64,000 nucleotides of DNA from Myxococcota bacterium (lineage in GTDB: Bacteria; Myxococcota_A; UBA796; UBA2385): positions 32,001-96,000 of the forward strand of contig JBIJDH010000007.1 of NCBI GenBank assembly GCA_044344255.1, in the 5' to 3' direction. Under the pieces are notes generated by a model that made no database searches, was not told where the DNA came from, and saw only the letters and a list, made by a program, of their open reading frames with translations. Shown one piece after another: positions 1 through 17,275 of the stretch (its first letter is position 1; each line of letters opens with the position of its first letter). A program made the position numbers and the translations under genes.

Positions 1-369
1 GGTGGGGGCGACGTCGGCGAGCACGCCGCCCTGATCGGAGCAGTCCCCCTCGAGCTGGCCGGCGGTCACCTTGCTGGCGGTGAGGAGGGCGGCCGCCGAG
101 AAGGCGATCGACAGGCCCACGGTGGAGCGCGGGGCCCGCCGCCCGTAGAGGACGAGCTGCCGCGCCACGGCCCAGCCGGTCAACACCATGGTCGCGGCGA
201 GCAAGCAGAGGCGCTCCTCGTCGGTGAAGGGGGCGCCGGGGACGAGCTCGCCGAGCTGGTCGTGCACGAGGTACCAGCCGAGCCCGGCGGCGAGCAGAGG
301 CACACAGACCTCCACCACCGCCTCACGCGACTGTTGACCTCCGACGGCCTGGAGCGGGCTCGAGCTCAC
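1..369 (-). CDS. Multi-pass membrane protein, N-terminal part (runs off the window edge), coupled to the CIS baseplate genes
   Basis: Not in the ORF track. GTG at 369 overlaps the TGA of the upstream gene (GTGA) and the frame is open to base 1: MSSSPLQAVGGQQSREAVVEVCVPLLAAGLGWYLVH...LCLLAATMVLTGWAVARQLVLY...TVGLSIAFSAAALLTA, with three hydrophobic stretches. Confidence 0.75.
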   Translation of the reverse strand, partial: MSSSPLQAVGGQQSREAVVEVCVPLLAAGLGWYLVHDQLGELVPGAPFTDEERLCLLAATMVLTGWAVARQLVLYGRRAPRSTVGLSIAFSAAALLTASKVTAGQLEGDCSDQGGVLADVAPT

Positions 370-1229
370 GCGCTCTCCTCCAGGCGGCGGGCCACCTCGG
401 CGTAGGGGCCGGCGGCGTCCGGGCGGCCGATGCCCTGGAGGAGCTCGTTGGCCGCCCGCTGGACCGATCCATGAAGCTGGTCGAAGAGGGCGCCCACCAG
501 CCGCACCCGCTCGCGGGTGGTGAGGGCCTGGGTGCGGAGCGTCATCCGCGCCGCCTGGAGCGCCGCGGCGGCGACCGTCTGGTAGCGCACCCAGTTCCGG
601 CCGAGCACCTGGCGGTCCCAGACGGAGCCCTCGGGCTCAGCGCGCCAGATCGTCTGGTCGAGGAGGTCCAGGCGCTTGAGCAGGAGCTCGATCGCGGGGT
701 GCTCGGGCTCGAAGACCCGGGCGAGGTCGAGGATCCAGTCGCGGCTGTTGCCGACGGGCTGGGCGACCGGGAGCAGCCAGGGGACCTCGGCCTGCTCCTG
801 GCGTACGAAGCCGACCTCGATGTTCACCTTTTGGCGGGCCACGCGCAGGCCGGAGCCGGACGTCGCGGCGGTGGGCCGGGCGACGAGCACGAGCACACCA
901 CGGCCCGCGGGGCCCGAGGAGGTGGGCCAGGGGATGCGCATCGGCTGCCGCACTTCGACGGGCAGGGAGCGGCCGTCCTCGGTGCGCACGAGGGCGGTGC
1001 CCGGTGAGAGCACGGCCTCCGTGGAGCGCGCTTCGGGGCGCACGGTGCCAGGGGGCCCGGCGGGGGCCCAGTCCCCCTCGAGCTCGAGGCCCTCGAGGAT
1101 GAGGCTGCGGTGCTGGGTCCGCCGCAGCGTGATGTCCCAGACGCGGCCGATCATGCCCGAGAGCGCGCTCAGGCTCTCGAGATCGAGCACGGCCCCCTCG
1201 ACGGGGTGGAAGATGTCGGCGGCGATCAC
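366..1229 (-). CDS. CIS baseplate-associated protein, possibly TssK-like
   Basis: 4-nt overlaps with both neighbours. Beta-rich N-half (LILEGLEL, VLSPGTALV, VLVLVA, LLPVAQ...WILDL..FEP) followed by a helical C-half, a layout reminiscent of TssK. The family call is weak. Confidence 0.55.
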   Translation of the reverse strand: MIAADIFHPVEGAVLDLESLSALSGMIGRVWDITLRRTQHRSLILEGLELEGDWAPAGPPGTVRPEARSTEAVLSPGTALVRTEDGRSLPVEVRQPMRIPWPTSSGPAGRGVLVLVARPTAATSGSGLRVARQKVNIEVGFVRQEQAEVPWLLPVAQPVGNSRDWILDLARVFEPEHPAIELLLKRLDLLDQTIWRAEPEGSVWDRQVLGRNWVRYQTVAAAALQAARMTLRTQALTTRERVRLVGALFDQLHGSVQRAANELLQGIGRPDAAGPYAEVARRLEESA

Positions 1230-1990
1230 GGTGAGGCCTCAGCGGGGAGGGTGGGGCGGAGGACCGCCCAGGGAGGGGTGAGTCGGGAGAGGAGGCCGGC
1301 GGCGGCGGTGGCGATGGGCAGGGCCACGTCTTCCTTGCGCAGCGGCCACCCCCCGGACGGGGGCTGGAAGAGCACGAGGCCGGCCTGGATGCGCAGGGCA
1401 GGGCGGGCCCCCTTGGCGGCGCGGGCCTCCCACCAGGCGGCGCTGTGGCAGCAGAGGATCTCGCCCCGAAGGTCGGGCGCCTCTGCTGCGTGGGCCGCGC
1501 CTTCGGCCTCGAGCCGGGCGGCCTCGAGCACCTGTCGGGCGGCGGGCAGGCTGCCGCGGCGGGGGAACCAGCTCGGCAGCAAGGCGACGAGGCGGAGCAG
1601 GACCTCAGGGTCGGCCCGGTGCAGCTCGGGCGCGACGCCGTAGGCCGCGCAGAGGCGGATGAGCACGGCCGGGATGGGCGTGGTCGGCGTCCATAAGCGG
1701 CCGCGGTTGGCGATGATCCACTCGGGGCGGGCGTAGAGGAGGAGCAGGGCCTCCTGGAGCGTGGCCCGCCCGGCCGTCTGGGCCTCCGCCGCCGCCTCGG
1801 TCATCAGCGGGGGCGCGAAGAGGGAGTAGGGGATGGACTGGAAGCGCAGCGGCGCGTCCTCACCCGCCACCGCGCGGTACAGGCTGCGATGGACCTCGAC
1901 GGTGGCGTCTACCCAGCCGAGGTCCGGGAGCTCCCCGCGGGCGGAGCGGTGGCTCCACTCGAGCTGCGGCGCGCGGGTCAGCGTGGTCAT
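1226..1990 (-). CDS. Baseplate wedge protein (P2 gpI/T4 gp7/TssG-like)
   Basis: Directly follows baseplate J. LLRLVALLPSWFPRRGSLPAARQVLEA resembles the gpI-type 'YRxKGT' motif. Confidence 0.6.
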   Translation of the reverse strand: MTTLTRAPQLEWSHRSARGELPDLGWVDATVEVHRSLYRAVAGEDAPLRFQSIPYSLFAPPLMTEAAAEAQTAGRATLQEALLLLYARPEWIIANRGRLWTPTTPIPAVLIRLCAAYGVAPELHRADPEVLLRLVALLPSWFPRRGSLPAARQVLEAARLEAEGAAHAAEAPDLRGEILCCHSAAWWEARAAKGARPALRIQAGLVLFQPPSGGWPLRKEDVALPIATAAAGLLSRLTPPWAVLRPTLPAEASP

Positions 1991-16100: not shown

Positions 16101-17193
16101 TGAGCACGCTCATGCTCACGGCGCGGTTGAGCGCGCGGTTCCCGGCGATGCGCAGGAGCTGCGTGCGGGCGTCCGAGATGTTCGGCTGGCCTACCGAGCT
16201 GTCGGGGTGGATCTCGAAGATGAGCCCCGCTCCGCCCTTCCTGACCTTGCCGACGTACAGGAGCGACGGGTCGAAGGTGACGTCAGCGTTCTTGAGCTGC
16301 TCTCGGGCCTTGCCGCCGTCGAGCTCGGCCCGCTGGAGCCAGAGCACGGGCTTGCCGCGGCTCGGGGCGATGGCGAACCAGTGGTCAGCAGTGTGCAAGG
16401 AGGGCACGGTCTGGGCGAGCTGGCGCACCAGCGCCTCCGAGAAGCCCGGCGTGCCCTGCACGACCACGGGCGCGTCGTCGAGGGCGCGGACGAGGCGGTC
16501 GCGCTCTCGGGCGACCTGGATGGCCAGCTCCTGCACCTCCGACATGCGAGAGGAGCTGCCCTCCTTGCTGTCGAGCCAGTCCTGGATGGCGCGGGACAGG
16601 ACGGTGAGGGCGGTGATCCGCTCTTCTTCGTCGGCCTTCGGGTCGTACGCGCCGAAGGCGCGGTCGATGGCCTTGAGGGCGGCGGAGCGCCGCGAGAACA
16701 TGCGGCTCGACTTCTTCTTCCAGTCGTCGTAGTTGAGCGTGAGCTGCGTGGCGCCTTCGTCCTCGTCGTCGCCTTCATCGCCCCCGCCCCCATCCTTGGC
16801 GGGGCCGATCTGGTAGAGCGCGCCCTTGGTCGCGGCGGCGAGGTCGGTCATGCCCGCCGCGATGAGCTCCTTGGCCAAGATGACGAGCGACTTCGTGACC
16901 GCGTTGACGGGCGCCTGCGCGCTCTTGGCGGCGATGGCGCTCAACACCAGCCCGTGGTCCACCATCTCGATGGTGCCGACGGCGACGGCGGTGGGCCGGA
17001 AGGTGGCATCCGCCTTCTGGAGCGCCGGGGTGACCTTGGCCCGCTCGGCCTCGGCACCCGTCTTGAACAGCATGAAGACGGGGCTCGGAGTCAGCGCAAG
17101 GTAGAAGTGGGCGGCCGTGCCTGACTTCACCAGCGGCCAGACCTTCTTGAGCTGGATCGTCATCAAACCCTGAAGCTTCGAGTTGTACGCCAT
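13192..17193 (-). CDS. Putative CIS toxin effector: duplicated N-terminal domain, four-helix membrane-localisation bundles, PMT-C2/RRSP-like (TIKI/EreA/ChaN superfamily) domain and unknown C-terminal domains
   Basis: GVTIGEVHNSPDSKKFIVDNL..AGVDTLYIEQF..GLRVRGID..RVARMN..GKYIVLAGQAHNNT..GIPGLSQL. GGAGG RBS. Directly upstream of the spike gene. Confidence 0.8.
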   Translation of the reverse strand: MAYNSKLQGLMTIQLKKVWPLVKSGTAAHFYLALTPSPVFMLFKTGAEAERAKVTPALQKADATFRPTAVAVGTIEMVDHGLVLSAIAAKSAQAPVNAVTKSLVILAKELIAAGMTDLAAATKGALYQIGPAKDGGGGDEGDDEDEGATQLTLNYDDWKKKSSRMFSRRSAALKAIDRAFGAYDPKADEEERITALTVLSRAIQDWLDSKEGSSSRMSEVQELAIQVARERDRLVRALDDAPVVVQGTPGFSEALVRQLAQTVPSLHTADHWFAIAPSRGKPVLWLQRAELDGGKAREQLKNADVTFDPSLLYVGKVRKGGAGLIFEIHPDSSVGQPNISDARTQLLRIAGNRALNRAVSMSVLTKVEVTIEGMNTGSVIQTAPSETLAAHNSTFTKLSRAAGLLKGQVSGPDRDRTAEVIRTAAGDWLDKNAKREHPADADKREEAWLSLKLSQDGVGATSRKELRVAGREFARELAEIQKIPTDPVDKPLQALLQLRAELEQWLKMARTQTDRAAVLELTALHEQTQRAIDALPDEVPDEVADPTLLDAALDELDKTLDLYVAEADLAEREKIKGVSTFLAECKRLADMALRHGLRPQAARADLLAKMFKCPASREKGLEWKPVLRVEFKGAVARVGLTVPPNKTAEGLEDELFKAAKQAINKGDRLRADDARQLLDVGYTLQQLREANFTVFRLLCRLAPGVSNQSPPRTATPEYSDYEKIEDAFGEPVAREQVVLRRQRRADAGHKLVQRPNFRGYDTLFTPTKVNTLKGHIQNKSPGDAVKSMLEDNDFPGVTIGEVHNSPDSKKFIVDNLESFKDAGVDTLYIEQFRVDEHQDDLDAYFKTGKMPEALAQYLKFQEDKHGVPFPDDLRGLLEKAQELGLRVRGIDSMDAKADPEVRDTVDKTTWTEQRVARMNALADDVITNDQGRKGKYIVLAGQAHNNTHRGGSEGIPGLSQLQKIPAVNVKDGALSLATEEPDARSHRPRKADASVLLSTTLGTAKRTAIGHEMHFEIHFENADQPEGEEYAPGELGWSFYQTVNGIRLEWWERIVVHWDFDATNLDAQGILDNQRQGVGGWTKAWADLLPSFPDSKTYEGWAKAVNLAREGKLPKMMTITIEDKPGILIRANRYSKRTLEFRHVVKDAHGKKIEALARQIIVVEDGKIVYSLYTDSAGHNEELRDQAYTTPLGNGEATPVFDLDADLPNNATTGAAAFVTRARAGEADSYLDKELDAFDAVYIDDPVSRNGHYQKLVKNQSCTMPLAREGYTYVQGAAPGGLYVALLNPRSDVERLYFTTDATWKNVKALGGCEPDSTIPCRQFIELPIEDYA

Positions 17194-17259
17194 CGTTGTG
17201 CTGTCCTCCGTTAGCCCGCGATTGCCGATCGCGCGGGATCTAACGTACCCAGACCCGGT

Positions 17260-17275
17260 CGCAATGGCGTTGCCA
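17260..17275 (-). promoter_or_regulatory. Putative sigma54 (-24/-12) promoter for the effector/spike genes
   Basis: Minus strand TGGCAACGCCATTGCG matches TGGCA-N6-TTGC with exact spacing, about 67 bp upstream of the effector ATG. Confidence 0.6.

Follow-up and report, generated by a model that had tools for sequence, protein, structure and literature searches.

A divergent contractile injection system with a candidate envelope module in a Myxococcota genome

The first 17,193 positions of a 64,000-nucleotide window (C83:32001-96000, where C83 is contig JBIJDH010000007.1 of a Myxococcota genome of 8.2 Mb and 95% completeness) carry 16 open reading frames (ORFs) in the same direction on the minus strand, in the order from toxin to membrane protein that an initial annotation had given. 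That annotation described them as mostly overlapping, which is true of about half of the 15 junctions (there are 7 overlaps, 7 gaps of 8-139 bp and one abutting pair). The genes form a contractile injection system (CIS) of the extracellular type (eCIS), called type B here to distinguish it from a second eCIS (type A) in the same genome. The eCIS core set (Afp1/5 tubes, Afp2/3/4 sheath, Afp7, Afp8, Afp9 and Afp11) is complete; the sheath is a single chain and neither the TssC sheath family PF05943 nor the TssM family PF06761 has a match in this genome, and the earlier distinction from a canonical type VI secretion system (T6SS) therefore stands. The locus carries on beyond base 1 of the window as a co-oriented minus-strand run of ~25 kb on C83. 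The whole system thus spans ~42 kb, less than half of it inside the piece annotated initially, and both the membrane module to the left and the second eCIS were missed at that stage.

The left-hand run contains six conserved membrane or exported proteins (p551, p914, p481, p496, p545 and p1019; Table 1), and the membrane-linked distal genes that had been singled out initially do prove to be the unusual part of the system. Among the other genes of the run, leaving aside the surface protein and the chaperone, the proteins scanned gave no convincing match in Pfam, NCBIfam or PHROG, and no TssJ, TssL or TssM match was found among the module proteins. p914 has 132 matches among 1.84 billion proteins in a library without names and no named relative; none was found either for p551 or for the barrel region of p1019. 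The topology of p914 is conserved, each of 11 proteins examined by hydropathy having a single hydrophobic segment at 260-344. In 13 sequences of p1019, inspection of residues 740-1019 by eye shows about eight segments of alternating hydrophobicity, and the named Atlas clusters nearest to p1019 are without exception outer-membrane barrels (scores 0.85-0.86, which are a lead only). p551 is a candidate dock for the baseplate. The type-A eCIS has no homologues of the type-B module genes.

A scan of a p287 alignment (the TssK-like protein next to p551) against 185,579 species genomes produced 39 loci, and the synteny comparison proposed in the initial annotation shows an unchanged gene order in all of them, with p551 following p287 in 39/39. 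Informative titles among these are Myxococcota, Deltaproteobacteria and unclassified metagenome-assembled genomes (MAGs); several differing taxon labels were taken to be automatic misnaming. Eighteen loci reach p914, which lies within 240 bp in 11 and after an insert of 4-8 kb in 7. Matches to p551 occur in 16 of 301 genomes of the phylum, all of one class, most likely UBA796. In a sample of 151 genomes of this class, p287 was matched in 41 (two weakly), p914 in 41 and p1019 in 39. p287 and p914 occur together in 39 genomes and are both absent from 108; for p287 and p1019 the corresponding counts are 37 and 108, and all 39 genomes with p1019 also have p914. The exceptions to the p287/p914 pairing are G020 (E value 4e-4), G034 (in which the locus reaches a contig edge), G037 (530 contigs) and G167 (750 contigs). 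Presence is patchy within families (9/19, 4/20 and 8/37), so type B is not the trait of a single clade. p1019 was present in 13 of 20 fetched distal stretches, and these 13 also hold p545 (13), p307 (12), the end of the low-complexity ORF (12) and an Afp15-like ATPase of their own (9). One genome (G025) carries three diverged type-B loci (C61, C4/C7 and C59). In another (G007, L044:13087-16864), the region immediately preceding the type-B spike, and not the distal end, contains an ATPase, a p307 homologue and an ORF that appears PAAR-like by eye.

The predicted structure of p287 (pLDDT 89) matches TssK in Foldseek with an E value of 2.4e-6, and pairwise comparison with TssK gives a Z score of 9.2 and a root-mean-square deviation of 6.2 over 242 aligned residues, the best unrelated row having a Z score of 6.6. 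No fibre or receptor-binding extension is present on p287 in 42 aligned sequences, and no fibre family was matched in the type-B run. The initial annotation had raised a possible eCIS/T6SS hybrid; the TssK-like gene is no sign of hybrid ancestry, as TssK-like anchors are part of a published baseplate type, eBAP3 (PMC12923769; this and the other papers are cited from the parts of their text that were available). p287 has no match to a 311-aa gene in the type-A locus, and homology of p551 to the YukD membrane protein of type A found no support (profile probability 1-3%). A 100% profile match between the baseplate J families of the two loci was set aside as circular, each alignment having drawn in the other family. 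Two p287 homologues, at L138:12437-13717 and L139:13385-14308, have no other type-B gene detected in the 20 kb fetched.

Table 1. Features of the type-B locus and position of the type-A locus. Plain numbers are window positions; others are contig positions.
Feature	Position	Strand	Basis or remark
Putative effector, 1333 aa	13192..17193	-	Not conserved at this site; RRSP E 8e-13
gp5-type spike (OB fold + beta-helix)	12481..13128	-	PF04717; first gene of conserved operon in relatives
Unknown conserved ~90-aa domain + Pro-rich tail	11951..12484	-	Domain N-terminal, in 15 relatives; tail peculiar to this genome
Major sheath, 650 aa, single chain	9859..11811	-	PF17482/PF04984
gp19 tube 1	9338..9769	-	PF06841
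Tail assembly chaperone-like protein	8936..9283	-	PHROG508 E 5e-4; paralogue at far end of operon
DUF6760, 55 aa	8772..8939	-	Family match
Second sheath-fold protein p402, very diverged	7567..8775	-	Predicted fold, pLDDT 83; Pvc4 E 1.2e-8
gp19 tube 2 with C-terminal extension of variable length	6647..7567	-	PF06841
Afp7-like tube initiator	5891..6601	-	PF19266
gp27-type hub, separate from spike	4856..5890	-	PHROG52 E 1e-16
gp25 wedge protein	4407..4829	-	PF04965
Baseplate J (Afp11-like), 803 aa, diverged	1987..4398	-	Family profile against Streptomyces CIS 9gtp, E 3e-9
Probable Tail_P2_I/TssG-like adaptor p254	1226..1990	-	Weak: position and profile probability 7%, 77 columns
p287, TssK shoulder-plus-neck fold	366..1229	-	Predicted structure comparison
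p551, first 123 codons	1..369	-	Part of the whole gene in the next row
p551, whole gene	C83:30714-32369	-	At most four N-terminal hydrophobic segments, then large conserved soluble domain; four invariant Cys
PKD/TSP3/MopE surface protein, 2234 aa	C83:24013-30717	-	Family matches
p914	C83:21265-24009	-	One membrane segment; Cys-rich C-terminal part
p481	C83:19823-21268	-	Polytopic, several hydrophobic segments
p496	C83:18336-19826	-	One hydrophobic segment
Low-complexity frame, Ala/Pro/Arg-rich, 1356 codons	C83:14411-18481	-	Candidate tape measure
p1019	C83:11355-14414	-	Exported; probable outer-membrane barrel
p307	C83:10435-11358	-	May be a Pvc16-like cap
p545	C83:8742-10379	-	One membrane segment
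p500	C83:7238-8740	-	Three copies of an unnamed ~100-aa repeat
Chaperone paralogue	C83:6801-7136	-	Second chaperone
Type-A eCIS	C52:235382-259721		ATPase, eCIS_core, Pvc16, two sheaths, LysM initiator, 1163-aa baseplate J, Tail_P2_I

Most of the initial gene names hold by family, profile or fold. For the gene called baseplate I (p254), Pfam-type family scans and the PHROG search returned nothing, and the name follows from position and the profile match in Table 1. The 'Pro-rich ORF' owes that description to its tail, the conserved part being the N-terminal domain. The divergence noted initially is borne out. The type-B sheaths have a stem of 2.03 changes per site, baseplate J has no Pfam match and was identified by profile comparison, and p402 has neither a Pfam match nor a PDB sequence match. 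The tube initiator has no LysM match, whereas its type-A counterpart does, and p307, which has no Pfam match, gives a profile probability of 0.8-0.9% against Pvc16 of type A. Neither the split spike nor the layout, both offered initially as signs of novelty, can be so regarded: a split Afp8 defines eCIS subtypes IIa-IIc (PMC6899500), and the order sheath-tube-chaperone-DUF6760-x-tube-initiator-hub-gp25-J-I is also that of Streptomyces and of type A. In five genes compared with the closest relative, third codon positions differ most (0.36-0.38, against 0.09-0.23 at second positions), a pattern indicative of purifying selection. No promoter motif common to the regions upstream of 13 spikes was evident by eye. 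Within C83:6386-8740 the p500 repeat also makes up a small convergent ORF, with the chaperone paralogue between the two.

The putative effector, whose gene ends 63 bp before that of the spike, contains two copies of an unnamed domain of ~110 aa, an MLD-like helical bundle, an RRSP/PMT-C2-like domain and a C-terminal domain of unknown type. Residues ~752-973 align with the RRSP of MARTX, including the Glu and His positions, which we take to be catalytic in RRSP, and residues ~150-235 resemble the stretch of a homologue that is an MLD (E value 8e-5). The alignment would thus place it among RRSP-like peptidases, as defined by a C2B fold with a Glu/His site. One full-length homologue was found (38% identity), and the first 358 aa have a match in 2 of the 151 class genomes, the second being weak. 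The initial description of a system with its own toxin applies to this genome; as none of 14 spike-bearing relative loci carries a homologue, the toxin is a private insert and was rejected as a fixed part of the system. Window 17436-18919, directly preceding the toxin gene on its upstream side, contains an AbiEi antitoxin and a weak match to Phd/YefM, and the site looks like an insertion hot spot. At C51:44053-44937, a 294-aa protein with the unnamed N-terminal domain of the toxin faces away from a 1804-aa gene of unknown function. A role of this domain in shared cargo loading is unsupported: this 294-aa protein is the one further protein of the genome in which it was detected, a search among shorter proteins returned nothing, and it does not align with the p500 repeats (profile probability 1.5%). 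RRSP-like effectors are known cargo of Photorhabdus virulence cassettes (PVCs; PMC11297309), and the odds are about even that the MLD/RRSP-like protein is type-B cargo aimed at a eukaryotic target such as a protist.

In addition to the genes in Table 1, the type-A locus holds a low-complexity frame of 1520 codons and a final YukD-like, membrane-spanning, Cys-rich gene, suggesting that type A too may be linked to the membrane. Its core order was found in 9/9 same-order loci fetched, as far as the stretches reach. It has no spike gene; two tandem stand-alone gp5-type spike genes, at C64:75701-77092 and far from both loci, probably serve it. A PAAR match lies at C18:306849-307034. A CIS sheath of some kind was found in 35 of 38 class genomes, and most class members carry an ordinary eCIS, providing a built-in comparison for type B. 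The eCIS loci of other classes of the phylum (L105-L109) also have two sheaths, in the opposite order to types A and B: the short sheath comes first, and the long one follows DUF6760.

In the sheath phylogeny, which the initial annotation had recommended, the type-B sheaths form one long-branched clade (support 100/100), while their wider placement is not established. In the best tree of 32 rows (after removal of 35 of 67 rows, namely second sheaths, redundant relatives and those on the longest branches) they nest with the class's own eCIS at 89/28 and are separated from three lineage-I-type rows (Afp, Aureibacter) at 99/98, although their grouping with lineage-I-type rows is not rejected by the approximately unbiased test (p-AU 0.247). 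In an earlier quick tree of 67 rows they had joined lineage-I rows at 93, among long branches. The closest solved sheaths by score are 9ezm (196 bits), which we take to be the haloarchaeal system of Halogeometricum borinquense, and Streptomyces 8bky (169), ahead of Afp3 (121); Deinococcus sheaths are also among the closest. An origin of type B from a duplicated, fast-changing lineage-II system is the likelier one.

The stretch is found at shares of at least 0.8 in 16 DNA runs of lake, river or freshwater origin (13 studies; 3 of the runs are possible sources). Contigs from three metatranscriptome studies cover parts of window 8482-11845 (sheath, tube and chaperone), the longest having 2029 nt and 63 differences. 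These contigs fit expression, with the reservations that the stretch used for searching contained these genes and that RNA libraries can carry DNA. No long RNA pieces over the toxin gene were present among the matches listed.

The gene content and topology of the locus suggest, at a probability of roughly 55%, that type B is an eCIS-derived machine that is anchored in the cell envelope and fired on contact in the manner of a T6SS. The identified tail parts (tube, two sheaths, initiator, hub, spike, gp25, baseplate J and the TssK-fold protein) would be assembled in the cytoplasm, with the Tail_P2_I-like adaptor holding fibre-less TssK-like trimers that could dock on the cytoplasmic domains of three inner-membrane proteins (p551, p481 and p914). 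In the periplasm, Cys-rich parts of p914, p496, p545 and p1019 might then bridge to the outer-membrane barrel in which p1019 probably ends, and the optional PKD adhesin may grip the target. Contraction would push the tube across the envelope into the target, with the rare MLD/RRSP-like protein encoded before the spike as the likely cargo in this genome.

Several points weigh against envelope anchoring. Its main weakness is that contact between baseplate and membrane proteins is inferred, and the head of TssK, the part touching the membrane complex in T6SS, is absent from p287. All module topology comes from hydropathy, at a threshold that missed some p551 segments, and an eight-strand barrel is too narrow for the tube and could serve as an anchor only. 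Some of the genomes counted had contributed sequences to the alignments A6 and A8, and their matches are therefore a product of the alignments themselves. An Afp15-like ATPase was not found in the type-B locus of this 95% complete genome. The membrane gene of type A sits in the same slot, and one membrane gene is therefore no distinction of type B. TssK-like anchors occur in ordinary eCIS (PMC12923769), and the Streptomyces CIS, although dependent on a membrane protein, kills the cell that produces it (PMC12237407).

A rather unlikely explanation is that type B is a free eCIS released by lysis, the module being an apparatus for release, assembly or export, or for display of the adhesin. Every structural gene is indeed of eCIS type, a tape-measure candidate and a possible cap are present, the toxin resembles known PVC cargo, and no holin or lysin family turned up in the type-B run, so that something else would have to release the tails. 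Against it stand the absence of fibres noted above and the six envelope proteins, which far exceed the needs of lysis, and tape measures are also found in anchored systems (10.1101/2024.01.29.577165). Slightly less probable again is an intracellular system docked on its own membrane that fires inward or kills the producer, as in the Streptomyces CIS with CisA (PMC12237407) or the cyanobacterial thylakoid CIS. The sheath scores and the baseplate J match to the Streptomyces CIS favour it, while self-killing requires neither exported proteins nor a probable outer-membrane barrel or surface adhesin, and an MLD/RRSP-like cargo fits a eukaryotic target.

The membrane genes could also encode an adhesion or export system in its own right, which only travels together with the tail genes; they have no homology to any known secretion anchor and the adhesin slot is variable. 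This is improbable in view of the overlapping start and stop codons that tie them to the baseplate genes, of the tail-type genes among or beyond them (low-complexity ORF, ATPase and chaperone paralogue) and of the near-perfect co-occurrence across the class. Despite the homology to phage tails, a prophage or remnant is so improbable that it was rejected: no head, terminase or packaging family was found among the genes encoded in the 25 kb to the left of window base 1, where the initial annotation had proposed to look, Terminase_6N (the sole terminase family searched genome-wide) has no match in the genome, the order is invariant across a bacterial class and the codon pattern is purifying.

A further proposal, given here tentatively and at slightly less than even odds, is that eCIS lineage II independently gave rise to a diderm T6SS. 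It would be class-specific, with its own six-family anchor from inner to outer membrane unrelated to TssJLM and CisA, docking through a headless TssK, occurring in the same genomes as an ordinary eCIS and delivering an anti-eukaryote effector in this lake organism. The locus bears on how a free phage-tail particle turns into a secretion system anchored to the cell. For the anchored systems of eCIS type, the available text of the cited papers leaves the anchor unassigned or gives one candidate gene. In type B, a whole candidate envelope complex can be named gene by gene, and it is kept in about a quarter of the class (41 of 151 genomes). What is new is this unnamed module together with the pairing of types A and B; no novelty attaches to the toxin, the TssK fold or the split spike. 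Type B may arm uncultured aquatic predators, of which this genome has no match to a canonical T6SS sheath.

Among known systems, type B shares with eCIS lineage II (PMC6899500) its gp19 tubes, single-chain sheath, Afp7, Afp9, single Afp11, an Afp8 split into gp27 and gp5 and, in the distal stretches of 9/13 relatives, Afp15; it differs in the six-protein envelope module, the diverged second sheath, the fibre-less TssK fold and the long sheath stem. The Streptomyces coelicolor CIS (PMC12237407) has a similar core order, the best baseplate J match and a membrane protein that it needs, but it has one bitopic adaptor, a monoderm host, a fused VgrG and a self-killing action, in contrast to the six envelope proteins and probable outer-membrane part of type B. 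Haloarchaeal systems of the eCIS clade act as T6SS and are marked by a conserved membrane gene (PMC11566945). That of Halogeometricum borinquense (clade IIa) resembles type B in its eCIS-clade genes and in the T6SS mode proposed here, and differs in having two Cis11 genes, one membrane gene and no outer membrane. T6SS subtype iv of Aureispira is likewise eCIS-derived, with a trans-envelope complex unrelated to TssJLM, a tape measure (a candidate in type B) and a predatory aquatic host, but belongs to lineage Ib (10.1101/2024.01.29.577165). In eBAP3 baseplates the TssK-like anchors, which accompany a TssG-like Tail_P2_I, are the N-termini of fibres; type B also has a TssK-like shoulder after a TssG-like adaptor, but p287 ends after the neck (PMC12923769).

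The toxin, like the MARTX RRSP and the RRSP-like PVC effector, combines an RRSP alignment with an MLD-like bundle upstream, and unlike them has additional unnamed N- and C-terminal domains. In seamount Myxococcota MAGs, mostly UBA796, eCIS clusters like phage-like-protein translocation structures (PLTS) with a highly transcribed tube are treated as one released eCIS (PMC11937823); section 14 of that paper mentions no second eCIS type or membrane module, and its clusters may include type B. The available text of a preprint on Danish Myxococcota (10.64898/2026.07.10.737566) does not mention the word 'contractile'. No description of the type-B membrane module was found in the literature searched, the coverage of which excludes most subscription papers. 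Hub and spike are encoded separately, with 6.6 kb between their genes, unlike the contiguous Afp8 of subtype IId, and the locus has one baseplate J, unlike the two Afp11 of IIa and IIc; one Afp11 with a split Afp8 marks IIb (PMC6899500), to which type B would be nearest by gene content. Further marks of IIb are Afp6, a divergent Afp12/13, a lack of PAAR and its position in the Afp11 tree. Of the features of T6SS i-iii, a TssK fold is present, minus its head, and a TssB/TssC sheath and TssJLM were not found. Type B is thus built from eCIS parts and is not a member of T6SS i-iii.

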